DNA of 64,000 bases from Nitrosomonadales bacterium (GCA_016223025.1 JACRPU010000021.1:14380-78379), one strand, 5' to 3'; shown: positions 16,581 through 32,563, counted from the stretch's first letter. Notes: generated by a model from the letters alone, not told the origin. Made by a program: numbers and translations.

Positions 16581-16644
16581 TTTTCCCGCTTCTCCGGAAG
16601 GGGCCGGGGGTGGGGGAGCCAACGATGCAGAGACTGCCACCATC

Positions 16645-17280
16645 ATGAACTCCCTCACCCCAACCCTGATGGAACCACTAGCCATTCGACCAGGCTGCCC
16701 GGATGCCGCAGCCAAGCCGCCGGTTATCTCCCAAAGGGAGAGGGAGCAGATGTTGCGCGTGCTGGAAGCCGCGCTGCTGACCGCGCAGGAGCCGCTGTCG
16801 TTGGCCGAGCTGAAGAAGCTTGGCGATGTGCCGACAGACAGCGGGATTATCGGAGAACTGCTCGAACATCTGGCGCGGGGTTATTAGAACAGCGGCGTGG
16901 AGCTCAACCGCGTGGCGAACGGCTGGCGTTTCCGCGCCCGCCCGGAAATGCAGCCCTATCTGGATCGCCTCAATCCGCAGAAACCGCCGCGCTACTCGCG
17001 CGCGGTGATGGAGACGCTCGCCATCATCACTTACCGCCAGCCGGTGACACGCGGCGATATCGAGGAAATACGGGGGGTGGCGGTATCTTCTCAGATACTG
17101 AAAACACTGGAAGCCCGCGGCTGGATAGACGTGGTCGGCACGCGCGATGCGCCGGGCAAACCCGCGCTGTACGCCACCACCAAGCAGATGCTGGACGATC
17201 TCAACCTGTGTTCCTTGCAGGAGTTGCCGCCGCTGGAGGAGATCAGCGGCTTGCTGGAACAGGAGCCGGGCACGGCATGA
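16645..17280 (+). pseudogene. scpB: Segregation and condensation protein B interrupted by an in-frame TAG (16885-16887)
   Basis: ORFs 16474-16887 and 16897-17280 are in the same frame. The joined sequence ...[29 protein letters not shown]...[32 protein letters not shown] is a colinear ScpB. The start is uncertain (ATG at 16543 or 16645). Confidence 0.8.
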
Positions 17281-17284
17281 GCCG

Positions 17285-18241: not shown

Positions 18242-18498
18242 GTTTGTTCCGAAGCCCTTTGCATATTGCGTACTCCACGGCATTCGGCCACCTGCTCCAC
18301 GATGATCCGACCGGGTCAGTCGGAGCGAAGCGACGCAAGATTTTCAGGTTAAGTTGTTTGGTCGCCGCCTGTCAATTTTCCCATTTCTTTACGCATCAAT
18401 TTGCCGGTCAAATTGATCCGGTAGCTGATCGCGTTGGTGAGGTAAGCCCGGCATGCCGCTTCAACCCGGCTGTTATGTCGCGCGGTTTGCGGGGGCGT

Positions 18499-18649
18499 GC
18501 AGGCATGGCGAGTTTCATTTAGCCGCAAGCTCGAAACTTCGCTTCGCTCGTTTGGCCGCAAGCTCGAAACTTCGCTTCGCTCGTTTGGCCGCAAGCTCGA
18601 AACTTCGCTTCGCTCGTTTTCAGGGGTGGCTACTTTGCCATGCCCGTTA
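18499..18649 (+). mobile_element. Family B element, hairpin half only, loop expanded by a tandem repeat
   Basis: GGCATGGCGAGTTTCAT ... GGGGTGGCTACTTTGCCATGCCCGTTA. The terminal TTA is the complement of the dsrM TAA stop. Confidence 0.7.
18518..18616. repeat. Tandem repeat, 3 x 33 bp
   Basis: TTT(A/G)GCCGCAAGCTCGAAACTTCGCTTCGCTCG repeated three times head to tail. Confidence 0.95.
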
Positions 18650-19372
18650 TTCTCCCGTTTCCAGTTTGGCCGCCCACGCTGCCAGATGGCGCTTTTCGCG
18701 CGGGTTGTCGGCCTGGTTGCGGGAGGGCGAGAAGAACACCCCCGGCGCGTGCAGCAGCTTGCTGAAAGGGAAAATAACCAGCAGCAGCGCGACCAGCAAA
18801 AGGTGCAGATAGAGCGCGAAGTCGGAAGGCAGCGTCTGGAAATCGAAGCGCATGAGGCCGAGAATGAAGGCCTTGGCGCCGATGACATCGGTGTGGAAAA
18901 CAAACGCCATCAGCGCGCCGGAAAGAGCAATGAGAAGCAGCAGCACCAGCATCAGATGATCTGACGGGGTCGAAATGTAGCGGATGCGCTCGACAAAAAA
19001 ACGCCGCGCCAGCAGCCCGGCAAGCGCGAGAACCATGACCGGCGAGGCATAAAGGCCGAACGGCTGAGCAAGCGCAACCCAGAGCCAGACCGGTTCGGTA
19101 AAGTAGCGCAGATGCCGTATCAGAACCAGCACCAGGCTCAAGTGGAAAAGCCAGCCCAGCGCCCATGTCCAGAGGTTGGATTTGAACAGGCTTTCAAAAA
19201 ACACCACTTCCCTGCACATGCGCAATACGACGCCGCCGCCGGTGACGGGCGCCGGGGTGGTCGGGATTTTCAGCGGCGCCGGCGTGCGCGCAAAATCATA
19301 AATCTTGTACCCCACTCCCAGCACCAGTACCAGGAATGCGAGGTAGAACAAAATGGCGAAGAGCAAGCTCAT
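18647..19372 (-). CDS. dsrM: NarI-like dihaem membrane subunit, read as DsrM
   Basis: 241 aa with 5-6 TM segments and conserved His, positioned immediately after dsrC in a dsrABEFHC array. Confidence 0.7.
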   Translation of the reverse strand: MSLLFAILFYLAFLVLVLGVGYKIYDFARTPAPLKIPTTPAPVTGGGVVLRMCREVVFFESLFKSNLWTWALGWLFHLSLVLVLIRHLRYFTEPVWLWVALAQPFGLYASPVMVLALAGLLARRFFVERIRYISTPSDHLMLVLLLLIALSGALMAFVFHTDVIGAKAFILGLMRFDFQTLPSDFALYLHLLLVALLLVIFPFSKLLHAPGVFFSPSRNQADNPREKRHLAAWAAKLETGE

Positions 19373-19411
19373 TTTCGGTATGACGGGAGCCAGGGGTCAG
19401 GGGGCAAGGGC

Positions 19412-19470
19412 CAGGAATCGGGTATCAGAAATGGGGCCGGTGCCCGGCTTTTTCTGACCCCTGATTCCTG
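19412..19470 (-). promoter_or_regulatory. Long stem-loop in the dsrC-dsrM spacer (candidate mRNA stabiliser or processing site)
   Basis: On the transcript: CAGGAATCAGGGGTCAGAAAAAGCCGG-GCA-CCGGCCCCATTTCTGATACCCGATTCCTG. An outer 8 bp stem, a middle TCAGAAA/TTTCTGA stem and an inner GCCGG/CCGGC stem. No U-run follows. Confidence 0.4.
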
Positions 19471-19493
19471 TTACCCGATACCCGACACCCGGA

Positions 19494-19829
19494 TCAGATG
19501 CAGCCGGTCGGTTTGGGCAGCCCCGCAATCTTGCATGCCTGCTTCCCCGGCCCGTAGGGAAACAGCTCGTAGAGGTACTGGCTGTTGCCTTTGTCCGGCC
19601 CGAATTTCTTGCCGATAGCCTTGGTCAGCACGCGGACCGCCGGGGCGATCTGATATTCTTCATAGTACTCGCGCAGAAAGTTGACCACTTCCCAGTGGTT
19701 GTCGGTCATGTTCAGGCTTTCCTGCTGCGCTATGAAATTGGCGACATCGGTGTTCCAGTCGGCGAGATTGATGAGGTAACCTTCCTCGTCGGTTTCATAG
19801 GATTTACCGCTTACTTCGATGCTGGCCAT
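19494..19829 (-). CDS. dsrC: DsrC sulfur carrier, both C-terminal cysteines present
   Basis: 111 aa. C-terminus PGKQACKIAGLPKPTGCI carries the two conserved Cys. Confidence 0.92.
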   Translation of the reverse strand: MASIEVSGKSYETDEEGYLINLADWNTDVANFIAQQESLNMTDNHWEVVNFLREYYEEYQIAPAVRVLTKAIGKKFGPDKGNSQYLYELFPYGPGKQACKIAGLPKPTGCI

Positions 19830-19860
19830 GGTGATTCTCCTCTTTTAACTTTAACCGGGT

Positions 19861-20157
19861 TCAAAGCCAGGATTGGCAGTTTTTATTGGCGGCGACGAGA
19901 TCAACAAAACCGCCGTAATCTACTTTCGCAACTCCTTCGATGATGCGATCGGCAAGCCCGCGCGCTTCGAGGTCGGGCAGCAGGATATGTATCTTTAACC
20001 GGCTCATCGCTTCGCGCACTTTGCCCTCCATCGCGTTGCCTTTTGTTGCGGCATAAACCGCGTCTTCGATAAGCAGGATGTCGCCTGATGCGGCGACGCG
20101 CAGGCAGGCATCGAGCGAGTTGTTACCCAGCGGCGACTTGTTGATGATGTGCAGCAT
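19861..20157 (-). CDS. dsrH: DsrH (TusB-like)
   Basis: 98 aa. MLHIINKSP... DsrH/TusB pattern and position in the dsrEFH set. Confidence 0.85.
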   Translation of the reverse strand: MLHIINKSPLGNNSLDACLRVAASGDILLIEDAVYAATKGNAMEGKVREAMSRLKIHILLPDLEARGLADRIIEGVAKVDYGGFVDLVAANKNCQSWL

Positions 20158-20198
20158 TTTGATTCCTTACTTTTGTAGAGCTACTGAAACCCTTGGTC

Positions 20199-20268
20199 CG
20201 TCATTCCGGCGAAAGCCGGAATCCGGTGCTTTTGATCGAATGGACACCGGCCTTCGCCGGTGTGACGA
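20199..20268. repeat. Double-hairpin repeat, family C
   Basis: CGTCATTCCGGCGAAAGCCGGAATCCGGTG ... TGGACACCGGCCTTCGCCGGTGTGACGAC. A second copy is at 58073-58140. Confidence 0.8.
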
Positions 20269-20279
20269 CCATGTTCCTC

Positions 20280-20401
20280 TAACGGGCATGGCGAATAGCC
20301 ACCCCTGATTATGAAACTCGCCAAGCCCGTTTCCCTCACCCCAACCCTCTCCCGCTGGCGGGAGAGGGGGCGAACGAACCGCTGCGCGAGTTTCACGTTA
20401 A
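20280..20401 (-). mobile_element. Family B element, full copy 2 (reverse orientation) between dsrF and dsrH
   Basis: Its reverse complement aligns end to end with 15265-15381, with a variant central hairpin CTCTCCCGCTGGCGGGAGAG. The terminal TTAA contains the dsrF stop. Confidence 0.8.
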
Positions 20402-20763
20402 AAGCTCAGCACCACATCCTGCTCATCCATGAGCGCGCCCATTTCCCTGCTGCCCAGGACGGTCACATCCACCAGCAGGTCTTCTTCGGTCAGGCCGCGC
20501 GCGTCGAGCGATTCCTTTTCGACGTAGAGTTTTTCGACATCGTAACCATCCAGCGCGCGGTAGGTGGGGGAAAAATTCTTGGTTTCTATCCCCTTTGTCT
20601 GCTGGCCTTTCTTCAACTGATACACGCCGTCGTCAAGAAATGCCAGCGACACGTCCTGATCGAAAGCGGCGGTGATGAGCACCACCTCCAGCGATTCCAG
20701 CGCGTAAATCGTGCCGTAGGGCGCCTTGCGGTTGACGAACAGGAATTTTTTGACTTCGTTCAT
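20398..20763 (-). CDS. dsrF: DsrF (TusC-like)
   Basis: 121 aa, DsrE/F fold pattern, second gene of dsrEFH. Confidence 0.85.
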   Translation of the reverse strand: MNEVKKFLFVNRKAPYGTIYALESLEVVLITAAFDQDVSLAFLDDGVYQLKKGQQTKGIETKNFSPTYRALDGYDVEKLYVEKESLDARGLTEEDLLVDVTVLGSREMGALMDEQDVVLSF

Positions 20764-20771
20764 ATGTTTCC

Positions 20772-21131
20772 TCAGTCGCCGAATACCACTACGCGGTCGG
20801 TCTGGATGCCGGCCTCGACCAGTTGCCCGAGACCGGAAATGCGGAACCCGTGCGCCAGGTTCTCGTCCTGGATGCCGCGCCGCAGGGCTGCCGCGACGCA
20901 GACCACGAGGTCAATCTTGTGCTCTTCGGCCAGCTTGCTCCAGCGGATCACGATGTGGCGGTCATCCTGCGGCGGCTCAGTCAGCCGCGTGGCGTTGTTG
21001 ACGCCGTCGTGGTAGAAAAAGACGCGCCAGATTTCGTGCCCCTTTTCGACTGCGGCCTTGCAGAACAGATAGGCCGAGTCGCTTGCCTGGTGCTGGTAGG
21101 GACCCTCGTTGACGACGATGCCAAATTTCAT
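20772..21131 (-). CDS. dsrE: DsrE (TusD-like)
   Basis: 119 aa. MKFGIVVNEGPYQHQAS... with the conserved Cys in DLVVCVAAALRRG. Confidence 0.85.
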   Translation of the reverse strand: MKFGIVVNEGPYQHQASDSAYLFCKAAVEKGHEIWRVFFYHDGVNNATRLTEPPQDDRHIVIRWSKLAEEHKIDLVVCVAAALRRGIQDENLAHGFRISGLGQLVEAGIQTDRVVVFGD

Positions 21132-21146
21132 GTTGTCTGTTCCCGG

Positions 21147-22223
21147 TCAGAAACGGATATGCGTAGAAGCGTTCAGGTTGGCGCGCGAGCCTCTCCAGTC
21201 ATCAATCAGGTACTTGGTGAAAGGCAGGCCGGTCTTCTCGAAAAAGCGCGGCCAGCCGATCCGCTCGATCCAGTCGGACATGCGCTCCCACGGCCTCGCG
21301 TCGGCCTTGTACGTGTGCAGGATTTTCTTTACCACCGCGCTGACTTCTGGCCAGCGCGGGGGGTTGTTGGGCAGCCCGGACGCGACCATTTTCATGAAGG
21401 TCGGTTTGCTGCGCGCATTGGAATTTTTTCCGCCGACCCAGATAGCCAGCTTCGAGTATTCCGGGTCATTGATCTGCATCGGCGGGCAGGGCGGGTAGCA
21501 GGCCCCGCAACACATGCATTTGCTCTCGTCAATTTCCAGCGAGGGTTTGCCGTTCACCATCGCCGGGCGGATCGCCGCCACCGGGCAACGCGCCACCACC
21601 GAGGGGCGCTCGCAAATGTTGGCGACCAGGTCGTGGTTGATTTTTGGCGGTTTGGTGTGCTGGATGATGACGGCGAGATCGGCCTGTCCGCCGCAGTTGA
21701 TTTCGCAGCAGGAGGTGGAAAGGCGCACCCGGTTGGGCATCTCTTCGTGCCGGAACTCTTCGATGAGTTCGTCCATCAGCGCCTTGACCGCGCCCGATGC
21801 ATCGGTGCCCGGAATGTCGCAATGCAGCCAGCCCTGGGTGTGGGCGATCATGGACACCGAATTGCCGGTGCCTCCCACCGGGAAACCGCTCGCTTCGAGT
21901 TCGGCGACCAGGGGGGCGACCTTGGACGCGCTCGACACCATGAATTCGATGTTCGAGCGGATGGTGAAGCGGACATGACCTTCCGCGAATTTGTCGGCGA
22001 TGTCGCACAGCTTGCGGATGGTATGGACATCCATTTGCCGCTGCGTGCCGGCGCGCACCGACCATACTTCGTCGCCGCCGTGCGAGACATGGTGCAGCAC
22101 GCCGGGGCGGGGCCGGTCATGGTATTTCCAGTTGCCGTAGTTTTTCGCCAGCAGCGGATGCAGGTATGGCTTGTTGTCGGGAACGCCGCTTTCGGTGGGG
22201 CGGCGCATTTGCGGTTGGGCCAT
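21147..22223 (-). CDS. dsrB: Dissimilatory sulfite reductase beta subunit (reverse/oxidative-type context)
   Basis: Start at ATG 22223 (MAQPQMRRPTESG...), GGGAGAA RBS 14 nt after the dsrA stop. Siroheme/Fe-S Cys clusters (CCEINCGG, CPVAAI, CMCCGACYPPCP). Confidence 0.93.
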   Translation of the reverse strand: MAQPQMRRPTESGVPDNKPYLHPLLAKNYGNWKYHDRPRPGVLHHVSHGGDEVWSVRAGTQRQMDVHTIRKLCDIADKFAEGHVRFTIRSNIEFMVSSASKVAPLVAELEASGFPVGGTGNSVSMIAHTQGWLHCDIPGTDASGAVKALMDELIEEFRHEEMPNRVRLSTSCCEINCGGQADLAVIIQHTKPPKINHDLVANICERPSVVARCPVAAIRPAMVNGKPSLEIDESKCMCCGACYPPCPPMQINDPEYSKLAIWVGGKNSNARSKPTFMKMVASGLPNNPPRWPEVSAVVKKILHTYKADARPWERMSDWIERIGWPRFFEKTGLPFTKYLIDDWRGSRANLNASTHIRF

Positions 22224-22236
22224 TTCGTTCTCCCGG

Positions 22237-23544
22237 TTATCTGTTTTGCGCGCCAGCCTGTTTCCTGGCGTTGATTTTTGCCACTTCCTCGTCCCATCCG
22301 TCGGTGCGGACATAGGGGTTCATGCGCGGAGAGGAAACCATGTTCGGATCCACTTCGAGTTCCATCGCCTCAAGGAAATTGGCGAGACCGATGCGCTCGA
22401 TCATTTCCCCGGTGCGCTCGTGCTCCAGCGCGTTCTCGGCAAAGAAATCAATGGTGCGTTGCGCGAGGTCCACCAGCTTCTCCAGGTCTCCGTCGCTTTC
22501 GAGTTTCATGAAGGGAACCACCACCGTCCCCATCAGGTCGCCGATCTTGAGCGTCCGTTTGCCGCCCATCAGGATGGTGACCCCCTTGTCCCTGCCGGGA
22601 GCCAGCGCGCCGGTCATGACGTTGATGCAATGCATGCAGCGCACGCAATCCCTGTTGTCAATTTCGATGGCGTGGGTATCGTTGATCGCCACGCTGGAGA
22701 TGTGCTCGCCCTTCCTGACATCCTTGAGTTGTTTGAGCAGGAATGTCCTGGTCGGACAGCGGGCAACCACATCGTTCACCAGTTCGTCCATGCCGTGTTT
22801 CGCGAACCATTTTCTGGCCAGCGCCTCATCGGTGCGCATGTTGTCGCGCCAGGTGCCGATGACCGCCATGTCGGCGCGCTGGATCGAGTTCATGCAGTCG
22901 TTCGGGCAACCGGAAAACTTGAACTTGAATTTGTAGGGCAGGGAAGGGCGATGCATATCGTCGAGGAAGGTGTTCACTACGGCGCGGTGCGCCTTCGCTT
23001 CATCGAAGCAGGACTGCTCGCAGCGGGCTGCGCCGACGCAGGACATCGAGGTGCGCACCGCCGGGCCAGCGCCGCCCAGATCGAACCCCATTTCGTTGAG
23101 TTCATCGAACGCCTTTTGCACGTTTTCGGTCGTTGCGCCCTGGAACATGATGTCGCCGGATTGGCCGTGAAACGCGATCAACCCGGAACCGTGTTTCTCC
23201 CAGATGTCGCACATTTTGCGCAATACCCCGGTGGTGTAGTGCATACCCGCAGGGGGCATGATGCGCAGAGTGTGGAATTCCGCCGCATCCTTGAAAACGG
23301 GTTCGCCGTTTTCATCCTTCAGTTCGGTGAAGCGCGGGATGACGCCGCCGCCGTAACCGAACACGCCCACCGTGCCGCCCTTCCAGTAGCCCTTCCTGGT
23401 GCGGTACGAGGTTTCGAGTTGGCCGAGCAGGTCAACCGCCATGTTGTTGTCCTGCGCCAGGCGTTTGATCCCGGTGACAAAACTCGGCCACGGACCGCTT
23501 TCGAGCTGGTCCAGATTCGGTGTGTCATGCAGTTTCTTGGCCAT
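22237..23544 (-). CDS. dsrA: Dissimilatory sulfite reductase alpha subunit
   Basis: 435 aa. GYWKGGTVGVFGYGGGVIPRF, SCVGAARCEQSC, FSGCPNDC and CVRCMHCINV motifs. Confidence 0.95.
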   Translation of the reverse strand: MAKKLHDTPNLDQLESGPWPSFVTGIKRLAQDNNMAVDLLGQLETSYRTRKGYWKGGTVGVFGYGGGVIPRFTELKDENGEPVFKDAAEFHTLRIMPPAGMHYTTGVLRKMCDIWEKHGSGLIAFHGQSGDIMFQGATTENVQKAFDELNEMGFDLGGAGPAVRTSMSCVGAARCEQSCFDEAKAHRAVVNTFLDDMHRPSLPYKFKFKFSGCPNDCMNSIQRADMAVIGTWRDNMRTDEALARKWFAKHGMDELVNDVVARCPTRTFLLKQLKDVRKGEHISSVAINDTHAIEIDNRDCVRCMHCINVMTGALAPGRDKGVTILMGGKRTLKIGDLMGTVVVPFMKLESDGDLEKLVDLAQRTIDFFAENALEHERTGEMIERIGLANFLEAMELEVDPNMVSSPRMNPYVRTDGWDEEVAKINARKQAGAQNR

Positions 23545-23818
23545 GAATCTTCCTTTCCGTCATGATGCGGCACAAGCTGAAAACTCCTCCGCGCGAAGCA
23601 ATAGTGACGCATCTGTCAAGCACATTAAATAGCCCTGATGGGGGGGTGTGCCAATAATCCCTTGGTGTTACCTTGTCGCTCCCCCGTGATGGCTATAGAC
23701 GCTTTTGCCGGAATTTTGCTCAATATCGCTTGCAAAACAAGGCAAAACACAATGTTGGTGAAACCGGTATCGCTGCGGGGTAGTATATAAAAATTCCGGA
23801 AAAACAGATGGAGAAAAA

Positions 23819-24043
23819 ATGGCGCATGTCAGCGAGCTGGAGAAATTCAGGGTGCCGCTGGGCAACCAGCAAATCGAGTTGCAGCAGGTTGACCATGCCG
23901 GAGGCGGAATGAGCCTGCTGCGCATCCGCATACGCGAAGGGCGGCGCTTCACCATTTTTGATATTGACCCCGCGACAGCGCGGCGCTGGAGCGACGCGAT
24001 GCGGCACTGGGCGGACGCGCAGGAGGCGAAGGCAGTTGAATGA
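23819..24043 (+). CDS. Small hypothetical protein (74 aa), first gene of the operon divergent from dsrA
   Basis: GGAGA RBS upstream, tight spacing to the next gene. No recognisable motif. Confidence 0.5.
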   Translation: MAHVSELEKFRVPLGNQQIELQQVDHAGGGMSLLRIRIREGRRFTIFDIDPATARRWSDAMRHWADAQEAKAVE

Positions 24044-24053
24044 AGCGCCTGAC

Positions 24054-24629
24054 ATGACGGATGTCGCCTTCGGCTTGCGGGGCGAGCTCGTTCCGGCGGG
24101 CTATGCCTTCGCGTTGTGGGATGAAGTGGCGCGTTGCCTGCCGTGGCTGGAAGCCGACGAGTTTGCCGGGATAGTCCCCTTGCGCGCTGCGGCAAGCGGG
24201 GGCAACATGCTGTTGCCGCGTCGCGCGAAACTGGTGTTGCGCCTGAGATCGCAGTTTGCGCAGCGCGCAAGGTCGCTGACCGGGCGGGAGCTGGATGTTG
24301 GCGGCAGCATGTTGCGGGTGGGCGAAGCCGAGGAACGGTCGCTGAAACCGTACCCGACGCTCCACGCGCAACTGGTGGAGAGCGCCAGCGAAGAGGGGGC
24401 CTTTCTTGCCGGCATGGCCGCCCGCCTGCAAGAAATGGAGGTTGCCTGCAAGCTGGTCTGCGGCAAGCGGCTTGCGGTGGCGGGAGAAAAGCAGCAGGTT
24501 GCCGGATACAGCCTCGTGCTGCACGACCTCAAGCCGGAAGGCTCCTTGCAGGTGCAGCGGATGGGGCTGGGCGGCAGCCGCCGTTTCGGCTGCGGAATTT
24601 TTGTGCCATACAAAACCATTGTAACGTGA
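24054..24629 (+). CDS. Cas6/Cmx6-like RAMP-fold protein, orphan (no CRISPR or other cas genes in window)
   Basis: ATG at 24054. N-terminus MTDVAFGLRGELVPAGYAFALWDEVARCLPWL and C-terminal glycine-rich loop GLGGSRRFGCGIFVP match my recollection of the subtype MYXAN Cas6 (Cmx6) family pattern. Confidence 0.5.
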   Translation: MTDVAFGLRGELVPAGYAFALWDEVARCLPWLEADEFAGIVPLRAAASGGNMLLPRRAKLVLRLRSQFAQRARSLTGRELDVGGSMLRVGEAEERSLKPYPTLHAQLVESASEEGAFLAGMAARLQEMEVACKLVCGKRLAVAGEKQQVAGYSLVLHDLKPEGSLQVQRMGLGGSRRFGCGIFVPYKTIVT

Positions 24630-24661
24630 GCTCGCGCAACGGGCGCTTACAGGAGGCAAAA

Positions 24662-24991
24662 ATGTCATATGTCATTGCAGGCAGGGAACTGGAAACCGAC
24701 CCGGAGGGATATTTGCTGGAACCGGACTACGGCGATGAAATTGCCGGTGTGATCGCGGCGGCGGAGGGGATCGAACTGACTCCCGCGCACTGGCAGGTCA
24801 TCAGTTATTTGCGCGACCAATATCGCGAACACGGCCACACGCCGAACTTTCGCAATATGCTGAAGGGCGTCCAGGAATTCTGGCCGGAAGCGGACAGCAA
24901 GGCGCTTTATGATCTTTTTCCGCTGGGCCCGGCAAAGCAGGGCGCAAAAGTTGCCGGGTTAACACAGCCCCTCGGAAAAGGCGGATACTGA
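24662..24991 (+). CDS. DsrC/TusE-family protein lacking both conserved cysteines
   Basis: AGGAGG RBS. Colinear with DsrC (ETDPEGYL..., HWQVISYLRDQY..., LYDLFPLGPAKQGAKVAGLTQPLGKGGY). The protein has no Cys at all: Gly replaces the internal Cys, and no Cys is present in the slightly longer C-terminal tail. Confidence 0.82.
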   Translation: MSYVIAGRELETDPEGYLLEPDYGDEIAGVIAAAEGIELTPAHWQVISYLRDQYREHGHTPNFRNMLKGVQEFWPEADSKALYDLFPLGPAKQGAKVAGLTQPLGKGGY

Positions 24992-25026
24992 ACCGGCCAA
25001 TAACCACATACACGGGAACCTGAAAA

Positions 25027-25512
25027 ATGAGCACACACGACATTCACGCCAATATGGTTCTGGACATGAAGGGGTTGACCTGTCCCGCGCCGCTGCTGGG
25101 CGCCAAGAAACTGGTGGACGATTTGCGGGCGGGGCAGATATTGCTGCTGATATCCGACTGCAAGGGAACCCAGGACGACCTTTTCGCATGGGCCCGGCAA
25201 ACGGGCAACCAGGTGCTGAAAACCGCGCAGATGCCGGATGGCGGCACCGGCTATTACATCATGAAGGGCAAGGACAAGACGCTCCAGGCCCATGTGACGC
25301 TGGATATACGCGGGGTCGCCTGTCCGGGGCCGATTGTCGAGGCAAAGAAATTGCTGAACGGCATGAAGCCCGGAGAAGTGTTGAAACTCGTTAGCAACTG
25401 CCCCGGAACCCGTGACGACATCACCAGTTGGGCAGCCACGACCGGAATGAAGCTGCTCGATACGGTCAAGGTTGCCGCAGACGATTACGAGTTCTACATT
25501 CAAAAGGCGTGA
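25027..25512 (+). CDS. Tandem double TusA/SirA-domain sulfur carrier
   Basis: 161 aa with two TusA modules, each carrying the CPxP motif (MKGLTCPAPLL and IRGVACPGPIV). Confidence 0.85.
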   Translation: MSTHDIHANMVLDMKGLTCPAPLLGAKKLVDDLRAGQILLLISDCKGTQDDLFAWARQTGNQVLKTAQMPDGGTGYYIMKGKDKTLQAHVTLDIRGVACPGPIVEAKKLLNGMKPGEVLKLVSNCPGTRDDITSWAATTGMKLLDTVKVAADDYEFYIQKA

Positions 25513-25538
25513 CGCCAGCGATCCGGAGCATTCGCCCG

Positions 25539-26114
25539 ATGCGTGTCAAAAGCAAATGGTTCAAGAGCGGGCGGGTGAAAACGCCGCAGGAAATCGCGGG
25601 TGCGATGGCATTCATCGTCTGGCGCATCGGCCTGAATGCGCTCAAAAACACGCGCAAGGCCGATTTTGATGTCGCTGTCGGGCCGCAGTATTTTGCATTT
25701 CTTTCGGAGTTTCTGATTTTTCTGGTGCAGGTTGCGGACCGGATTGCCTATGGCCGGTTCGGCGCCGAAGACCGCACCTCCTTTACCACGGCGCTTGCCG
25801 TGCGGCTTGCCGAAATACTGGCCGAGAACCGGAGCGAATTGCTCGGCGGCACAACCGCCGAACACGAGAGCAGCTTCATCGCGCAGCTAAACCGGCGCGC
25901 CGGGGAATACGCGGAATTCGAATATGGCAGCGGCGGCCCGGAATTCTCGTTCATCCGTCATCTCGGTTACTGCATGCTCGACCTTGTCGCCGAGAAGGAT
26001 AAAAGCTGGGTGGTTGACCAGATGATGACCTTCGAGGCGCCGGAGGCCGTGGCAACGGCGGAAAAAGCCTTGCGGGGCTTGCTCGAAGATGCCCCCGCGC
26101 AACATGCCGCTTGA
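25539..26114 (+). CDS. Hypothetical protein (191 aa)
   Basis: The ATG at 25539 follows the double-TusA stop. Mostly helical-looking, with no motif I recognise. Confidence 0.5.
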   Translation: MRVKSKWFKSGRVKTPQEIAGAMAFIVWRIGLNALKNTRKADFDVAVGPQYFAFLSEFLIFLVQVADRIAYGRFGAEDRTSFTTALAVRLAEILAENRSELLGGTTAEHESSFIAQLNRRAGEYAEFEYGSGGPEFSFIRHLGYCMLDLVAEKDKSWVVDQMMTFEAPEAVATAEKALRGLLEDAPAQHAA

Positions 26115-26135
26115 CCGGGTTGAGGGATCATTGAA

Positions 26136-27068
26136 ATGATGATACCCCTCGCGCAAACATGCTCCAGCCCGGGCCCGTTCGGTTTCGGCGATGAAACCGC
26201 ATACCGGCGCTGGCGCGAGCGGAAACTGGAACAGGCTCCGCAGACGGTTGCCGAACTGATCGTCGAGGTCGGCGATGCGGAAAACCTGTCCGCCGCAGAA
26301 CATGCCGCGCTCCTGGCGCGCTGCCGCCGCGCCAACATGGCCATCTACGCCAACCGGAAGCGCGGTGCCGGCAAGGATGTCGCACGCATCGTCGGGCGGC
26401 AGTTCGGGCTGGAAAACCTGGATGCCAACTGGCTTGCCGACGAGGATGGGGTTTCGCAGATAACGGTATGCGGCGGCAGCGCGCGCCAGGATTTTATCCC
26501 CTACACCAACCGCCCGATCAAGTGGCATACCGACGGCTATTACAACCCGCCGGAACGGCAGATCCGCGCGATGGTGCTGCATTGCGCCCGGAGCGCGGCG
26601 GAAGGTGGTGAGAACTGCCTGATGGATCACGAAATGGCTTATCTGCTGCTGCGCGACGCCAACCCGGATTTGGCCCGCGCCCTGTTTGCGCCGGACGCGA
26701 TGACGATTCCGGAGCGCGTGGACGAAGGCGGCGTGGCGCGCGCCGCCCAGACCGGCCCGGTTTTTTCCATCGAAAAAAATGGCGCGCTGCACATGCGCTA
26801 TACCGCCAGAACCCGCAGCATAGAATGGAAGCGGGACGAAATGACGCTGGCGGCAACCTCCCTGCTGGAAAAACTGCTGGCTTCAGATTCGCCCCGCATT
26901 TACCGCGCCCGCCTTGAGCCCGGCATGGGGTTGCTGTGCAACAATGTGCTGCACGATCGCGCGGGCTTCCGCGACGACGCGGATCATCCCCGGTTGCTGC
27001 AACGCGCGCGGTTCTACGACCGCATAATGGCCCCGCGCAGCCAGCCCCGCGCAGCCGGCCTTGACTGA
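26136..27068 (+). CDS. TauD/TfdA-like Fe(II)/2-oxoglutarate dioxygenase superfamily protein
   Basis: 310 aa. WHTDGYY (HxD facial triad) and a distal His in CNNVLHDR. Overall length fits the family. Confidence 0.6.
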   Translation: MMIPLAQTCSSPGPFGFGDETAYRRWRERKLEQAPQTVAELIVEVGDAENLSAAEHAALLARCRRANMAIYANRKRGAGKDVARIVGRQFGLENLDANWLADEDGVSQITVCGGSARQDFIPYTNRPIKWHTDGYYNPPERQIRAMVLHCARSAAEGGENCLMDHEMAYLLLRDANPDLARALFAPDAMTIPERVDEGGVARAAQTGPVFSIEKNGALHMRYTARTRSIEWKRDEMTLAATSLLEKLLASDSPRIYRARLEPGMGLLCNNVLHDRAGFRDDADHPRLLQRARFYDRIMAPRSQPRAAGLD

Positions 27069-27091: not shown

Positions 27092-27372
27092 ACGTGAAGC
27101 TCGCGTAGCGAGTCCGTGTCCCCTCGCCTGCGTGTGTTGTTGTGGCTTCATCGCAACTGCAGCGCACCTCCCGCGGAATGTTGCGGTATAAACGGCGATC
27201 AAGCCGGCGCCCTTTGCCGGCTTGGCCGAACGGCTATAACTTGATGGTTTGCCCGGCGGTTCTTGCCGGATAGCCGGTTGCTTCACCATCTGCTGCATCC
27301 AGAGAGCGGTGGTGAGGGAAGCGGACAGGGCGAGTTTCATTTCCAGGGGTGGTTTCTTTGCCATACCCGTTA
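27092..27372 (+). mobile_element. Family B element, degenerate copy with a large internal insertion
   Basis: Left end ACGTGAAGCTCGCGTAGCGAG and right end GGTGAGGGAAGCGGACAGGGCGAGTTTCATTTCCAGGGGTGGTTTCTTTGCCATACCCGTTA. Confidence 0.55.
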
Positions 27373-27683: not shown

Positions 27684-27974
27684 TCCTGCGGTCGGAATCG
27701 CACTGGAAGCCCGGATGAAACGCAGTGCAACGGGGAAGCGGAAGCCCCCGGATTCTGCTGTCGCTGCATCCGGGCTACAGAGTTCTTGTTAACGCGCTGT
27801 TGTCGGCGCGGCTGGGCGGTTGCGTGATGCACATTAGATGGATGCGTGGGTGGCGGGGGTATGGCCCATGTTGCAAAGCGAGCGCCTTTATTGCACTTTT
27901 CACCATTTTTGTGTGCTCTTGCGCTGACTTGTTGGGCATTCGTGCTTATCTGGTTTACACCCACGACCTGCTTG

Positions 27975-28112
27975 GGGGTCGAGAAATAATAGCTTGGGCA
28001 ATTATGGGTGCGCTGGCGGGGTGCGATACAAGGCGCCAGGCGCGCCGCATGGCCATTCCATGCAAGCGGCTGGCAACGCCGCAACGCGCCCAGAATATTG
28101 TTTCTCGACCCC
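27975..28112. mobile_element. MITE-like element, family A, copy 2
   Basis: GGGGTCGAGAAATAATAGCTTG ... CAGAATATTGTTTCTCGACCCC. Its core is the reverse complement of 394-553. Confidence 0.65.
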
Positions 28113-28129: not shown

Positions 28130-29122
28130 TCATTTATATTCGATCAGGCGCGCCGTTTTTCCGGCCAGCCTGTTATGGAAAAATCTCAACTGGCCCGCTA
28201 CCTCCGGAAACTTGCACAGCACCAGAAACAGGGCGCGCCACCAGTTTTCGCTCGTGGATCGCGTGCCGCGCGAGGCGAGGCGGACGACTTGCGCGGGATA
28301 AATCAACAGTAGCGCCAGGCCCCAGGCTCCCATCCAGACAGACAGGGCCGCCGCGAGCGCCGGGATGCCAAGCCCCCACGCCCAGACGCGCCGGGATTCC
28401 TTTACGCGGTGCCGCTCCGGTGGCGAGCCGTGCAGATGCGCGCCCTCGGCATAGGCATATCCGCAACGCATGTTCCGCTTCCACCACTGCCCGAAACGGG
28501 TAATCGCGGCATCGTGCAGCGTCATTTCCTCGCCGAGCCTCCATATTTTCCAGCCTGCCGCCCTGAGCCGCACGCAGAGTTCCGGCTCCTCTCCGGCAAT
28601 CAGGCTGCCGCGATACCGCCCCGCACGCTCAAAAGCGCCAGCGCGCATCAATGCGTCGCCGCCGCAGGATTTCGCCTCGCCTACGGGAGTATCCCATTCG
28701 ATGTCACATAACATGTTGTACACGGAATGATCCGGAAAACGTTCGCGGCGGCGACCGCAAACTACGGCGACATCAGGGTGTTCATCGAGAAACCGGGTCG
28801 CTTTTTCCAGCCAGCCCGGCACAACCTCGCAGTCTCCGTCCACGAATTGCACATAGCCCAGTTCCGGCGCTATCTTGCACAGGCAAGCAAACCCCTCATT
28901 CCTTGCCCTGGCGGCCGTAAACGGAACGGACATATCCAGCCCGATCACCTCGACCCCGAGGGCGCGGGCCATCTCTACAGAGCCATCCGTGGAGCCGGAG
29001 TCCACATACACTATCTTGCCCGCCAGACCCACAACGGACAGGAGGCATTTGCGCAGGCGCTCGCCCTCGTTGCGGCCTATAGCCACGATTCCGACCGGTA
29101 AAATGGGGGCGCTTTCAATCAT
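28130..29122 (-). CDS. Glycosyltransferase family 2
   Basis: 330 aa. VAIGRNEGERLRKCLLSV...VYVDSGSTDGS and DGD motifs. Confidence 0.8.
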   Translation of the reverse strand: MIESAPILPVGIVAIGRNEGERLRKCLLSVVGLAGKIVYVDSGSTDGSVEMARALGVEVIGLDMSVPFTAARARNEGFACLCKIAPELGYVQFVDGDCEVVPGWLEKATRFLDEHPDVAVVCGRRRERFPDHSVYNMLCDIEWDTPVGEAKSCGGDALMRAGAFERAGRYRGSLIAGEEPELCVRLRAAGWKIWRLGEEMTLHDAAITRFGQWWKRNMRCGYAYAEGAHLHGSPPERHRVKESRRVWAWGLGIPALAAALSVWMGAWGLALLLIYPAQVVRLASRGTRSTSENWWRALFLVLCKFPEVAGQLRFFHNRLAGKTARLIEYK

Positions 29123-30008
29123 CCGGCAATGCCCATTCCAGTGATTTCGCCGCAGTTACCCGCTTGAAATTCCGGCAGTTCACGTCTGCGCCGAGCCATT
29201 TCCCCAACTGTGCCAGATCGCGGTCAAACTCCGCCTCCAACCGGCCGCGAGCCTCTTCGCCCAGGGCAGGGCGTTCCCGCATGCGCAATTTCATCTTGAT
29301 CGCATCGCGCAGGCTTTGCGGTATGAAGCGGCGGCGAAACCAGGTTGCCGGGGCGGAATCAACCAGCAGCCCGTACAGCGGAAATTTTCGGATACGCTCG
29401 CTGGAGACATTGTCCGGCTCCATATCCTTCACCCAGGCCGGCTGGCCCCGATAACCGATAAACCGGCAGATGCGCTCCAGCTCCGACTGGGGTTCATGAA
29501 CCAGGCGGTCGAAAAATACCGGCAACACGGCAGCGCGGCCAAAAGTGGCGAAATAGGGCTCAAGCTGCATGGCATAGCGGCCATAGGCGATCAACTCGGG
29601 ATATTGTTTTACCGCTTGCTCGATGCCGCAGTGATAAATTCCCGTGCTCCATTCATGCATGTAGTGAGAAACCAGGCGGTCCACCGGGTGGCGCATCACA
29701 TATACAAAGCGCGCATCGGGTAGATGTTCCTTCAAACGATCAACGGCATCGGGATGGGTGGGAAGCTTGGTGTAATGTGTGCTGGCCTCGCCCAGCAGGC
29801 TGCCTTGTGGCGCGCCGGCAAACAGGCCCGAATACCACGCCATGCCTCTGGCATACTGATCGGTGTCGCTGAAAAAGTTTGGCTCCTTCGGGATGCACAT
29901 GAATATGCCCGGCTGCACGGCCAGTTGCTTTTGCAGCGATGAAGTCGCCGACTTCATCGCACCGACGATGACGAAATCCGGCAAACGCAAACCAGGTTCT
30001 TTGTTCAT
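29115..30008 (-). CDS. Sulfotransferase family protein
   Basis: The ATG at 30008 overlaps the upstream stop (ATGA). PDFVIVGAMKSATSSL is the PAPS 5'-phosphosulfate binding loop, and a RHPVDRLVSHY region follows. Confidence 0.8.
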   Translation of the reverse strand: MNKEPGLRLPDFVIVGAMKSATSSLQKQLAVQPGIFMCIPKEPNFFSDTDQYARGMAWYSGLFAGAPQGSLLGEASTHYTKLPTHPDAVDRLKEHLPDARFVYVMRHPVDRLVSHYMHEWSTGIYHCGIEQAVKQYPELIAYGRYAMQLEPYFATFGRAAVLPVFFDRLVHEPQSELERICRFIGYRGQPAWVKDMEPDNVSSERIRKFPLYGLLVDSAPATWFRRRFIPQSLRDAIKMKLRMRERPALGEEARGRLEAEFDRDLAQLGKWLGADVNCRNFKRVTAAKSLEWALPDD

Positions 30009-30982
30009 GGGTTGGGCGGGGTATAGTGTTTTAGCGGATTGTGCCAGTTTGTCCAGATATCCAGCCATTGCCCTTCAATGGCCCCCTTGTCTGATCGCCC
30101 GAGCAATTGCCGGATCCCGGATACCGACCGCCCCGCCCACCACAGCAGGTTCGCGCTCATCATGCCAAACCAGCCGGAGGCCTGGTAATAGTATCGGGTG
30201 CGGGACTCGTAGAAATATCTGGGTACCCGTTTCTTTAATCGGGTCTGTTTTTTGACCGGCGAGCTTCCGCCGCGCAGATGCACGACCCGTGCATCGGGAT
30301 TATGCACGATCTCCCATCCGGCCTTGCGGGCGCGGCGGCAAAATTCCACATCCTCAAAATACATGAAATACCCCTCGTCCAGAAGGCCGACCTGCTGAAA
30401 CACTTCATCCGTCACCAGCACGCAGGCAAAACTGGTCCACTGGGGTCGCGCGATTTGTGTCTGCACCGGCAAGGCCACGATGTAACGGCTGAAACACCTG
30501 GAAATCAAGCCGGTTTGGGCGGCGGCGATCAGTTCGCTGAATGGGGTAGGGAACCGGAAACAGCTTTCCTGCCCGACGCCGTCCGGCCATTCGAGGCGCG
30601 GGCTGACCAGACCGGCCTCGGGGAAGCGCGTTGCGGTATCCAGAATGATCCGTATCGCTCCCGGGCGAATCAGGGTATCGCTGTTCAATAACAAATAATA
30701 ACGGGCATTGCAGGATTTGATCCCGATATTGTTGCCGGAAGCGAACCCGGAATTGTGTTCCGACTGAACAAAAAGAACTTTGTTGACAGCGTCATGCTGC
30801 GCCAGCCACGCTCGGATAATTTCGGGCGAGTTATCCGCCGAATGGTTATCCACGATGACGACCCGCGCATCCATGCCATCGAGTTCCGGCAGAAGCGTCG
30901 TCAGGCAGTCAATAACGAACGCCGGCGTGCGGAAATTCACTATGACAACGGATAACTGTGGCGACATCCGCATTGATTCCAT
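30005..30982 (-). CDS. Glycosyltransferase family 2 (rhamnosyltransferase-like)
   Basis: LSVVIVNFRTPAFVIDCL...VVIVDNHSADNS. Start ambiguous (30982, 30973 or 30967). Confidence 0.8.
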   Translation of the reverse strand: MESMRMSPQLSVVIVNFRTPAFVIDCLTTLLPELDGMDARVVIVDNHSADNSPEIIRAWLAQHDAVNKVLFVQSEHNSGFASGNNIGIKSCNARYYLLLNSDTLIRPGAIRIILDTATRFPEAGLVSPRLEWPDGVGQESCFRFPTPFSELIAAAQTGLISRCFSRYIVALPVQTQIARPQWTSFACVLVTDEVFQQVGLLDEGYFMYFEDVEFCRRARKAGWEIVHNPDARVVHLRGGSSPVKKQTRLKKRVPRYFYESRTRYYYQASGWFGMMSANLLWWAGRSVSGIRQLLGRSDKGAIEGQWLDIWTNWHNPLKHYTPPNP

Positions 30983-31011
30983 GCATATCCCGATATTTCA
31001 ACGACAGGCCC

Positions 31012-31180
31012 TAACGGGCATGTCGAGTAGCCACCCCTGATTATGAAACTCGCCATGCCCGTTTCCCTCACCCGTGCGTGGCTGTTGCCGCTTCAGCGGC
31101 TTTACAGCCACGGCCTGCCCCTTGCGGGTGCAACCCTCCCCCGCTGGCGGGAGAGGGGGCAAACGAATCGCTGCGCGAGA
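31012..31180 (-). mobile_element. Family B element, copy 3 with an extra nested hairpin insertion and an altered end
   Basis: TAACGGGCATGTCGAGTAGCCACCCCTGATTATGAAACTCGCCATGCCCGTTTCCCTCACCC, plus an inserted CGTGGCTGT...ACAGCCACG hairpin, then CCCGCTGGCGGGAGAGGGGGC...GCTGCGCGAG. Confidence 0.7.
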
Positions 31181-31231
31181 TTATGGTGGCATCACGCGCA
31201 ACGGTTTCTTGCGAGCATAGCTGTTCTAACG

Positions 31232-32563
31232 CTAAATCCGGGTAAGGGCGGGCCAGGCCTGCACCACGACCAACACCGAAACGGCAAGGAGTATCAGGTC
31301 GAGCTTGGGCTGCCATAATCCATTGCGGAACATCACGCAGGCATACAAAGGGTACACTACCCAGTTGGCCGCTGCCACACCCATCACGAGACCGCTTCCC
31401 CCGCCGAGGCGGTATCCGATAAACATCACGCTGAACTGGCATACGACCTGAATGGCGGTCAACAGCGTCGAGGTGGCAACCTTGCCCAGCGCCATCAATA
31501 CGCCCGCATAAGACCCCCACACACAAGCGGCGAGCAATCCGGCGGCGAGCTGCTCCAGCATGAGCCCCGAACCGTGATAACGCTCATCGTATAGTATTTC
31601 CATAACCTGAGAGCCAAAGAAGATGAATAGTACTGACAGGCTCAAACTGGGCAAAATCAGCAGCAACCGCGACTTGAACAGGACTGCCATGAAGTTTTTC
31701 GGGTTGCTGCGATAAGCCTCGGAATAGGCAGGAAAAAACACGCCCCACGCCAATTGCTGCATGGCCTGCCAGAACACGAGGTTCATGGTGCTCGCCAATG
31801 TAAACAGGGCCAGTTGGCGCATGTCAAGCAAAGCGCCGATTACCAGGCGCGCGCCCTCCAGCGACAGGAAAGTAAGGCCGGAACTTAACAGTATCCAGCG
31901 TCCAAACCCGATTAAATGATCGAGCGCACCGCGATCCCAGGCAAACTGATTCCTTATGCCACGCAGCAACAAATGGCTCGCAAACATTTTCAGGCTGGTT
32001 GTAATAACATGGCCCCAAACCAGCGCCCAAACTGAACGCTGTAGCCAGGCAAGATATACCGTGACGAGCAGCCCGATCGAGGAAGCGGCAACGTCAATCT
32101 GCGCAACCCGCGCCACCGCCAGATTGCGTTGCGCGCTGTACAGTTTGGTGGAGTTAAAGCCCTGGATAATTGCGCTCAATCCAACAACGGGGATCATGCC
32201 GGCAAGCAACGGCTCCCCATAAAGCTTGGCCAGGGGCAACGCCAGCGCGCAAAGCCCTCCCCAAACGAGAACGCCCCGCGCGATCTGGACGGTCCACGCC
32301 GTATTCAGGAAAACCGGATCGTTTCCCTGGTTCTTCTGGATAATCGAAGGGCCGATTCCCATATCGGTAAGCATATGCACGCCAAAGATCACGGCCTGAA
32401 CAACCGCCATCAAGCCAAACGCCTCCGGAAACAGCAGGCGCGTAAGAATGAGGTTCCCGCCCAGGCGCAAAGCCTGGTTTACGCCATATCCCGCCAGGGA
32501 CCAGGAACCGGACTGCAGGACACGCTGCTTGAGGGTGAGTGCGGGTTTTGATGAGGTTGGCAT
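31232..32563 (-). CDS. Polysaccharide/O-unit flippase (Wzx-like, MOP superfamily)
   Basis: 443 aa with about 12 or more TM segments. N-terminus ...SGSWSLAGYGVNQALRLGGNLILTRLLFPEAFG is typical of PST-family flippases. Confidence 0.75.
   Translation of the reverse strand: MPTSSKPALTLKQRVLQSGSWSLAGYGVNQALRLGGNLILTRLLFPEAFGLMAVVQAVIFGVHMLTDMGIGPSIIQKNQGNDPVFLNTAWTVQIARGVLVWGGLCALALPLAKLYGEPLLAGMIPVVGLSAIIQGFNSTKLYSAQRNLAVARVAQIDVAASSIGLLVTVYLAWLQRSVWALVWGHVITTSLKMFASHLLLRGIRNQFAWDRGALDHLIGFGRWILLSSGLTFLSLEGARLVIGALLDMRQLALFTLASTMNLVFWQAMQQLAWGVFFPAYSEAYRSNPKNFMAVLFKSRLLLILPSLSLSVLFIFFGSQVMEILYDERYHGSGLMLEQLAAGLLAACVWGSYAGVLMALGKVATSTLLTAIQVVCQFSVMFIGYRLGGGSGLVMGVAAANWVVYPLYACVMFRNGLWQPKLDLILLAVSVLVVVQAWPALTRI

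Follow-up and report, generated by a model that had tools for sequence, protein, structure and literature searches.

Why is a gene annotated as CRISPR-associated found beside the genes of sulfur oxidation, and what may it and its neighbours do there? The question is raised by a stretch of 64,000 nucleotides (the window) from a Nitrosomonadales metagenome-assembled genome (GCA_016223025.1, JACRPU010000021.1:14380-78379). At positions 23819-27068 of the window, six tightly packed open reading frames (ORFs), called here p1 to p6, run on the + strand, divergent from dsrA. We regard them, with high confidence, as a Dsr-linked accessory operon. The six members are as follows.

23819-24043, + strand: p1, 74 residues; Pfam DUF6967 (PF22295, E = 2.5e-31); core member
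24036-24629 (TTG start) or 24054-24629 (ATG start), + strand: p2, predicted Cas6/Cmx6 fold; core member
24665-24991, + strand: p3, 108 residues; Pfam DsrC (PF04358, E = 2.7e-31), no cysteine; accessory member
25027-25512, + strand: p4, 161 residues; tandem TusA with two PF01206 domains; accessory member
25539-26114, + strand: p5, 191 residues; orphan protein predicted to be all-helical; core member
26136-27068, + strand: p6, 310 residues; TauD/TfdA (PF02668, E = 9.4e-15); core member

The window ORF calls agree with an earlier reading of this DNA, made from the sequence only, which had reported six same-strand genes divergent from dsrA: all are present on the + strand. When p2 is counted from the ATG at 24054, the gaps between successive genes are 10, 35, 35, 26 and 21 nt. 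However, p2 more likely begins with the TTG at 24036, giving an overlap of 8 nt with the p1 stop, because NCBI calls a 197-residue product there and homologs keep the preceding PDM/PEM. NCBI lists proteins with 100% identity to p2 and to p5, both from a metagenome-assembled genome of Nitrosomonadales, and gives p1 the product name "hypothetical protein".

The module co-occurs well beyond this genome, a point that the sequence-only reading had proposed to check by a gene-neighbourhood survey. Relatives of p2 were found in 223 genomes in a scan of one genome per species, the best 80 of which are mostly Gallionellaceae, Sideroxydans and Sideroxyarcus, and in 316 metagenome loci in a scan seeded with the two largest remaining, distant clades. 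A protein search among 1.84 billion representative proteins returned 1612 family members, the best 150 of which split into several clades. Searches with tblastn, using the six proteins and the Dsr proteins, revealed the full set, in the same order and divergent from dsrAB, in essentially every genome locus with enough flank. TusA and DsrC-like genes occur in swapped order in the metagenome loci of the distant clades, and all of these loci that have flank are dsr-linked. Presence was counted only over loci with enough flank, and is given here for genome loci, for annotated loci of the window's and intermediate clades, and for metagenome loci, respectively.

Divergent dsrA: 70/70, 7/8, 37/37
p1: 70/70, 7/8, 35/37
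p3: 63/63, 4/7, 33/37
p4: 57/63, 5/7, 36/37
p5: 60/63, 7/7, 37/37
p6: 58/63, 7/7, 32/37

Overall, dsrA is divergent in 114/115 loci for which the upstream flank is available. The gene arrangement is far beyond chance, because the same genes occur in the same order, divergent from dsrA, in 70/70 genome loci of the Cas6-like clade closest to p2 and in 37/37 metagenome loci of a distant clade. Clades that are 39-45% identical to p2 (L085, L086, L087, L089 and L090) are again divergent from dsrA, and the operon is linked to dsrA as tightly as dsr genes are to one another. Orthologs of the dsr genes in related loci are 80-98% identical.

The operon varies in content among clades. In L090 it consists only of the genes for DUF6967, the Cas6-like protein, the helical protein and TauD; therefore, these four genes constitute the core. 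The DsrC-like p3 and the double TusA p4 are frequent but dispensable accessories: p3 is absent from L086, L087 and L090, and p4 is absent from 6 Gallionellaceae loci, L085 and L090. Within Gallionellaceae, p3 is the most conserved operon member (73-92% identity). In most loci, p1 and p2 either overlap at the stop and start or directly adjoin each other, as do p5 and p6, which suggests two protein pairs; p5 is always located directly upstream of p6. Genes recruited to the operon are all involved in sulfur uptake or trafficking. For instance, the first gene of the operon is SQR-like in L085 and L089, and TauD is followed by the gene of a YeeE-type transporter in L086 and by DsrE2-TusA genes in L090. 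Loci of the Sideroxydans type carry FadL-like, SQR-like, DsrE2-TusA, Usp, TauE and SoeABC genes on the far side of the operon. By position, the operon genes should correspond to Slit_1687-1692 in Sideroxydans lithotrophicus ES-1, because dsrA in this strain is Slit_1686.

The protein that prompts the CRISPR annotation is p2. It matches Pfam PF09559 (E = 3.4e-49, 167.9 bits, cutoff 26.7), the NCBIfam model TIGR02807 cas6_cmx6 (137.7 bits, cutoff 98.85) and the PADLOC Cas6 model (E = 5.8e-50). A profile built from p2 and 24 homologs matches PDB 8fcj_B over its full length (E = 1e-25); this chain is a type I-B Cas6 of known structure from a CRISPR-associated transposon (PDB 8fcj). The AlphaFold2 (AF2) model of p2 has a predicted local distance difference test (pLDDT) value of 94.5 and a predicted template modelling (pTM) score of 0.88. 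Foldseek aligned this model to 8fcu_B with a template modelling (TM) score of 0.90 and to 8fcj_B with a score of 0.87, at root mean square deviations of 1.8-2.3 Å (1.8 Å for 8fcu_B), and 31/31 matches at E <= 0.001 are Cas6 or Cse3, some of them Cas6e chains in Cascade complexes. The protein fits the double ferredoxin-like (RNA recognition motif, RRM) Cas6 fold with a C-terminal glycine-rich loop, where the GLGGSRRFGCGIFVPYK motif is located. As judged from the model, p2 is a genuine Cas6/Cmx6 fold, and the call of a Cas6-like ORF at 24054 made by the sequence-only reading holds. Thus, of the three outcomes that this reading had named as refuting it, two did not arise: the module is not confined to this genome, and the 24054 ORF does not lack a RAMP/Cas6 fold.

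Its Cas6 fold notwithstanding, p2 does not belong to a CRISPR system. The 64-kb window is devoid of CRISPR arrays, and no cas Pfam families were found within 8-10 kb in 10 annotated related loci. As a positive control, bona fide Cmx6 proteins encoded on cyanobacterial plasmids are only 22-28% identical to p2, and the control gene heads a full cas3-cmx8-cas5-cas4/1-cas2 operon accompanied by a 12-repeat array. The NCBIfam TIGR02807 equivalog model scores dsr-linked, non-CRISPR proteins above its trusted cutoff; therefore, NCBI records name these proteins "type I-MYXAN CRISPR-associated protein Cas6/Cmx6". Hundreds of such labels represent a systematic misannotation, which bears on annotation and on surveys of CRISPR distribution. 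The family also provides a concrete example of a Cas6 fold recruited to metabolism.

At the other end of the operon, p6 matches the PF02668 profile with 55.7 bits (cutoff 27). Of the two motifs that make up its HxD...H iron-binding triad, WHTD is kept in 104/105 orthologs and NNVLHxR in 103/105, and from these motifs p6 is very likely an active Fe(II)/2-oxoglutarate (2OG) oxygenase. The nearest NCBIfam and PDB matches are betaine/phosphonate hydroxylases (TmpA, BBOX and TMLH), far below family cutoffs, and not TauD or AtsK; the match to TmpA 6npb is weak. A tauD-like gene linked to dsrAB in the opposite direction is found in the window and in 97/107 loci with downstream flank. According to Loffler et al. 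2020 (PMC7596348), Lenk et al. 2012 (ISME J 6:2178) had observed a gene with a tauD annotation that is transcribed in the direction opposite to dsrA, and gave it the name dsrQ. By its position, p6 is probably the dsrQ of the literature. Release of sulfite from sulfonates has been speculated for dsrQ (Loffler et al. 2020, PMC7596348), the same naming and the same speculation are found for Methylovirgula thiovorans (Methylovirgula paper), and DsrQ is listed with unknown function by Hausmann et al. (bioRxiv 197269). A "hyp-dsrQ" pair is present in a Verrucomicrobiales cluster (Loffler et al. 2020, PMC7596348), and its "hyp" member may be p5.

The helical protein p5 has no match in Pfam, NCBIfam or PADLOC, and no consistent weak Pfam matches were found across 40 members. 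Its homologs form 1181 clusters and, among the 120 matches listed, all are "hypothetical protein" or unnamed. The AF2 model (pLDDT 82.9) comprises six helices; Foldseek found no PDB match to it at E<0.001 (top E 0.26), and there is no PDB sequence match.

The two accessory proteins are homologs of sulfur-relay components. The p3 protein matches PF04358 with 108.6 bits and TIGR03342 with 88.4 bits, and scores 84 bits against the TusE equivalog, the cutoff of which is 191. Among p3 orthologs, the penultimate cysteine (CysA) is missing in 134/134 and CysB is present in 24/134, while the C-terminal tail reads GK[G/A]GY in 134/134; therefore, this invariant arm is under selection for something other than sulfur binding. 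Functional DsrC requires two cysteines in the C-terminal arm, and the cysteine-free p3 is not of this type. It fits instead the RspA type of DsrC/TusE homologs, as it matches the DsrC-family profile and misses both C-terminal cysteines; loss of both cysteines defines this type, according to 2014 work as cited in PMC8477390. The p4 protein carries two TusA domains with CPAP and CPGP motifs, and both CPxP cysteines are found in 139/139 orthologs. Thus, the sequence-only reading was right in describing a DsrC homolog devoid of cysteine (p3 matches PF04358), a double TusA keeping both CPxP cysteines and an Fe(II)/2OG dioxygenase-like protein (p6 exceeds the TauD cutoff and keeps the triad).

Remote relatives of p2 were observed outside dsr loci. 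L088 (8810-9681), L173 (3727-5091) and L174 (448-2215) carry non-CRISPR Cas6/Cmx6 members of 226-234 residues that are 29-34% identical to p2. In these loci an ORF of 62-63 residues precedes the Cas6-like gene, a DsrQ-like TauD or a DsrC-like gene adjoins it, and no dsrAB genes are in view. The DsrQ-like TauD beside a remote Cas6-like gene is 42% identical to p6, and the DsrC-like protein of L088 ends in RKGGY. The association is deeper than dsr, because three loci without dsrAB still pair a small protein with Cas6-like and TauD/DsrC-like proteins. Comparison by hhalign of p1 with the 62-63-residue proteins beside remote Cas6-like genes gives a probability of only 23%, which makes their homology no more than suggestive.

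The operon and dsrA share a single intergenic region, the length of which is 170-460 nt in most related loci. The following elements were recorded in the window.

23545-23818, unstranded: control region shared by dsrA and the operon; 274 nt, with conserved blocks mid-region
23631-23644, unstranded: palindromic element AGCCCTGATGGGGG; family consensus [A/T]ACCC-N4-5-GGGT; candidate operator or mini-hairpin
23604-23631, + strand: possible sigma-70-like promoter for the operon (GTGACG, 16-nt spacer, TAAATA)

The palindrome occurs in its strict form in 81/147 intergenic regions and in a relaxed form in 115/147. Its density is 1.86/kb in intergenic regions versus 0.029/kb elsewhere in 2.1 Mb of loci, an enrichment of approximately 65-fold. 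The median distance is 158 nt to the dsrA ATG and 127 nt to the p1 ATG, and the element was found in all Cas6-like clades sampled. Two roles are conceivable, as an operator in DNA or as a hairpin of four base pairs capped by a tetraloop. The CRISPR repeat of the bona fide Cmx6 has a similar short G+C stem and tetraloop (GCC-GUAA-GGC), and the RNA reading was kept because this repeat folds into a comparably small structure. The intergenic ACCC-N4-5-GGGT element is the only candidate hairpin RNA for p2. With Gallionella-type sequences only, RNAalifold yielded a weak and unconvincing structure of -5.3 kcal featuring one partly covarying pair. Evidence for the operon promoter is weak, because the site is under the promoter-scan threshold; relatives with the window's intergenic type have TTGACG at -35. 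A scan of 18-30 kb with Rfam gave no real match.

Intergenic regions differ in layout. Most Gallionellaceae loci (L014-L079, Gallionella-type) have a second ACCC...GGGT copy approximately 25 nt upstream, and the two copies form an inverted repeat of roughly 40 nt, CACCCnTAGCGG-N-CCCTnAnGGGTG. In the window-type region, a TTGACG -35-like box takes the place of the left copy. The partly covarying pair in the inverted repeat, tallied over 54 sequences with six pair types listed, is U-A in 17, G-C in 14, A-U in 2, G-U in 5 and broken in 14 (7 U-C, 7 A-A).

How might these parts work together? We propose that the six genes form an accessory operon of the oxidative (reverse) Dsr pathway, that is, an extended dsrQ operon with a division of labour among its products; taken as a whole, we consider this proposal about evenly balanced between right and wrong. 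The shared control region would govern the expression of the operon and dsr jointly. DsrQ, together with p5, would carry out an O2- and 2OG-dependent step on a sulfur compound or on a carrier-bound intermediate, the latter being handled by the TusA- and DsrC-type proteins that would feed the Dsr pathway. Only sulfur oxidizers exposed to oxygen would require such a step. The DUF6967 and Cas6-like proteins, presumed to be translationally coupled, would form a nucleic-acid-binding unit, which most plausibly binds an ACCC-N4-GGGU mini-hairpin in the leader transcript and tunes dsr and operon expression post-transcriptionally. This specific assignment of roles is tentative, and we would expect at least some of it to be wrong. 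A bolder formulation holds that a Cas6/Cmx6 branch, including most or all of the best 150 representatives, was domesticated outside CRISPR and, paired with DUF6967, serves as a sequence-specific RNA-hairpin binder or processor that controls dsr post-transcriptionally through ACCC-N4-GGGU in the dsrA or operon leader, alongside the O2-dependent DsrQ and a non-redox, DsrC-like swinging arm. We rate it as rather doubtful; if true, it would describe the first Cas6-derived regulator of core energy metabolism.

Several observations weigh against the proposed extended dsrQ operon. In S. lithotrophicus ES-1, the transcriptome paper describes dsr (Slit_1686-1673) as induced on thiosulfate, but genes of the divergent operon are not reported in the paper or its supplement. 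The histidine of the GIHP motif, to which analogy with known Cas6 enzymes would assign a catalytic role, is retained in sister dsr-linked clades and in 8fcj_B, but the window p2 has Val41 in its place, and 73/80 proteins of this clade have L, I or V; if this residue is catalytic, the p2 clade of the window would bind RNA rather than cleave it. Covariation cannot separate an operator from a hairpin, because the palindrome stem is invariant, and in the conserved intergenic core RNAalifold gave a stem of just 3 bp for the - strand and no consensus structure for the + strand. The + strand transcript may lack part of the palindrome, as the promoter-like site abuts it in window-type regions, and the palindrome is lacking in remote Cas6-like loci, which also lack dsr. 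A solitary TauD/TfdA gene (12034-12939) on the Thiothrix fructosivorans plasmid pTfr153 (L171) encodes a protein with 53% identity to p6; it is surrounded by serC, a radical SAM gene and nrdD, and dsr, Cas6-like and p5 genes are all missing from its vicinity. Finally, the dsr cluster of the window ends after dsrM, and there is no dsrK, L, J, O or P anywhere in the 64 kb. The closest relative, L001, also has no dsrKLJ beside dsrM, whereas most other loci feature dsrABEFHCMKLJOP.

Among other explanations, we hold a purely regulatory or sensor module for dsr, which would catalyse no metabolic step, to be about half as probable as the extended dsrQ operon. DsrQ would be an O2-sensing hydroxylase, TusA would report sulfane-sulfur, the Cas6-like protein would act on mRNA, and either the cysteine-less DsrC, which has a helix-turn-helix-like motif in its fold, or DUF6967 would bind the palindrome as operator. 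Divergent placement and a shared region with an enriched palindrome are typical of regulator-target pairs. No classical DNA-binding domain was found among the Pfam matches listed for genes within 8-10 kb in six annotated loci; LysR- and IclR-type genes are seen in L090 only, where they follow the Cas6-like gene at distances of approximately 5 and 9 kb. The marked conservation of p3 within Gallionellaceae fits as well. DsrC of A. vinosum reportedly binds the dsr promoter, and dsr is said to be under post-transcriptional control. However, p3 and p4 are dispensable in several clades, which makes the cysteine-less DsrC, on which the second, regulatory interpretation of the sequence-only reading relies, an accessory rather than a core member, and insertions and additions to the operon are sulfur-trafficking or transport genes, not regulators. 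Moreover, Pfam and NCBIfam detect no DNA-binding domain in any of the six proteins, and the TauD-type catalytic triad is strictly kept, although this would fit a sensor too. It is unlikely, in our view, that the module cleaves sulfonates or S-sulfonates, with DsrQ freeing sulfite from an intracellular or ambient organosulfonate and the other proteins handling substrate or product. This is the speculation on record in Loffler 2020 and the Methylovirgula paper; p6 belongs to the TauD family, its WHTD is identical to that of taurine dioxygenase, and a TauE-type sulfite exporter and SoeABC are encoded nearby in Sideroxydans loci. Yet the best matches of p6 are betaine/phosphonate hydroxylases, below cutoffs, no sulfonate transporter or regulator was seen in the loci, and it would not be explained why Cas6-like, DUF6967 and helical proteins are obligate partners.

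Less probable still is the first of the two interpretations offered by the sequence-only reading, RNA-directed modification. Here, sulfur would come from the TusA/TusE-like proteins, the Cas6-like protein would bind a structured RNA such as the stem-loop of a tRNA, and the dioxygenase would act on a nucleoside. In its favour, proteins with the Cas6 fold bind RNA hairpins, tRNA thiolation in E. coli makes use of TusA and TusE homologs, and the Cas6-like/TauD/DsrC-like link holds in the three loci without dsrAB. The survey lends this interpretation no support, and these points are outweighed by the linkage to dsrAB in 114/115 loci and by the lack of tRNA-modification genes in annotated loci, where neither mnmA nor tRNA genes were found among Pfam-annotated genes. 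In addition, 134/134 orthologs of the TusE-like p3 lack the cysteine that would accept sulfur, the operon can do without its sulfur carriers, and neither a conserved RNA structure in the dsrA-p1 region (RNAalifold) nor a conserved p2-p3 hairpin was found. We know of no TauD-family enzyme that modifies RNA. A decaying type I CRISPR-Cas remnant, located near dsr by chance and carrying a functionless Cas6-like gene, is suggested only by the NCBI annotation and the TIGR02807 name, type I-MYXAN Cas6/Cmx6. This explanation is effectively refuted by the conservation pattern, because p2 remains full-length and keeps invariant motifs across clades that share only 35-50% identity, in every case within the same operon; cas genes and arrays are lacking nearby, and bona fide Cmx6 proteins are distant at 22-28% identity. 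The extended dsrQ operon, with the balance of confidence stated above, is the account that we prefer.

Other candidates were rejected. An anti-phage defence system was dismissed, as PADLOC matches only its Cas6 model among the operon proteins. As for a sulfur-carrier role of p2, Cys136 and Cys180 occur family-wide but are replaceable and not specific to dsr-linked members. A processing hairpin between p2 and p3 was discarded, since the spacers show only Shine-Dalgarno sequences.

The dsr genes from which the operon diverges were located by the window ORF calls as follows.

18647-23544, - strand: divergent dsrABEFHCM block; context and linkage partner of the operon
22237-23544, - strand: dsrA, separated from p1 by a 274-nt intergenic region
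about 21147-22223, - strand: dsrB
20772-21131, - strand: dsrE
20398-20763, - strand: dsrF
19861-20157, - strand: dsrH
19494-19829, - strand: dsrC, the genuine one, with both cysteines present
18647-19372, - strand: dsrM

The next gene past dsrM encodes an NAD-dependent epimerase (17285-18283) and is followed by unknown ORFs and a UDP-glucose dehydrogenase gene. The block from dsrM to p6 is located between polysaccharide-type genes, at 13743-18283 and 28130-32563; the latter interval includes ORFs that, read by sequence alone, may encode two glycosyltransferases, a sulfotransferase-like and a flippase-like protein. Polysaccharide genes flank the block here while sulfur genes flank it in related genomes, which suggests a rearrangement in this lineage.

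Repeats are found around the block. Just downstream of dsrM, at 18515-18619, three copies of a 33-nt unit (GCCGCAAGCTCGAAACTTCGCTTCGCTCGTTT...) are arranged head to tail; the corresponding RNA has a strong predicted fold (-45 kcal/mol for 140 nt), and the repeat occurs in none of the fetched loci. A dispersed family resembling repetitive extragenic palindromic (REP) sequences or miniature inverted-repeat transposable elements (MITEs), with the core CAGGGGTGGCTACTCGCCATGCCCGTT, occurs in both orientations at 15264-15382, 20199-20402, 31010-31182, 58073-58142 and 61253-61371. By eye, copies with this core are also found at approximately 18620-18650 and 27330-27370, and partial copies appear to flank the dsrM-p6 block; a composite copy fills the dsrH-dsrF spacer. 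An inverted repeat pair (436-555 and 27972-28091; 120 nt, 93% complementary) spans 27 kb, and its right arm is located approximately 900 nt downstream of p6.

Elsewhere in the window, a SoeABC-like sulfite dehydrogenase operon maps to 6611-11771, with genes for a molybdopterin subunit (8871-11771), a Fer4_11 subunit (7589-8299) and a DmsC-type anchor (6611-7585). The genes for the A and B subunits of this operon are separated by a DUF559 endonuclease-like ORF (8296-8904). Three stretches of low G+C content (0.43-0.49 versus approximately 0.60 elsewhere), at 35001-36000, 40001-42000 and 51001-53000, may be acquired islands.

Oxidative Dsr is a major route of sulfur oxidation, the regulation and accessory factors of which are poorly known in aerobic chemolithotrophs. 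The operon supplies dsrQ with a defined set of partners, and among the operon genes only the last, dsrQ itself, has been named. The claim of the sequence-only reading that no described pathway has this composition must be narrowed: it fails for p6, because dsrQ was already named (Lenk et al. 2012, via PMC7596348), and it stands, as far as the accessible literature goes, for the other genes in a dsr context. Full-text searches, the reach of which did not include Lenk et al. 2012, found no description linking Cas6/Cmx6, DUF6967, helical, cysteine-less DsrC or double TusA genes to dsr. Three features appear to be undescribed: the association of dsrQ with a domesticated Cas6 fold and two orphan proteins as obligate partners, the invariant GKGGY arm of the cysteine-less DsrC, and the intergenic element. 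If the assignment to Slit_1687-1692 holds, the question is directly testable in the culturable S. lithotrophicus ES-1.

The operon can be compared with known systems. As described in the accessible part of the literature (Lenk et al. 2012 via PMC7596348), dsrQ resembles p6 in being a TauD/TfdA gene linked to dsrAB in the opposite direction in aerobic or microaerophilic chemotrophic sulfur oxidizers. In contrast, p6 closes an operon of four to six genes and lies 2.3 kb from dsrA, and the partners DUF6967, Cas6-like and helical protein are unmentioned in those sources; the two genes are matched by description, not by sequence. Known Cas6/Cmx6 proteins of types I-B, I-D and I-MYXAN (chain B of 8fcj and 8fcu; cas6 of Synechocystis PCC 6714 pSYLB) share with p2 the fold (TM 0.87-0.90) and the C-terminal glycine-rich GCGIFVP(H/Y)K motif, and p2 passes the curated cutoff. 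Unlike them, p2 is accompanied by no array, cas3, cas5, cas7, cas8, cas1 or cas2, is 22-28% identical to bona fide members, is paired with DUF6967 inside a sulfur-oxidation locus, and has the GIHP histidine replaced in the window's clade. Similarly, p3 features the DsrC fold signature without catalytic cysteines, as do RspA-type homologs, but its invariant GK[G/A]GY arm and its fixed place in the dsrQ operon were found nowhere described. TusA, DsrE2, DsrEFH and DsrC constitute the cytoplasmic sulfur relay of sulfur oxidizers (Stockdreher et al. 2014, as cited in PMC7596348 and PMC8477390). In line with this relay, p4 has the TusA CPxP cysteine in both domains and adjoins dsrEFHC, and canonical single-domain tusA-dsrE2 pairs are found nearby in related loci; p4 differs in being a fused double TusA, which is extra to the tusA-dsrE2 pair and dispensable in some clades.

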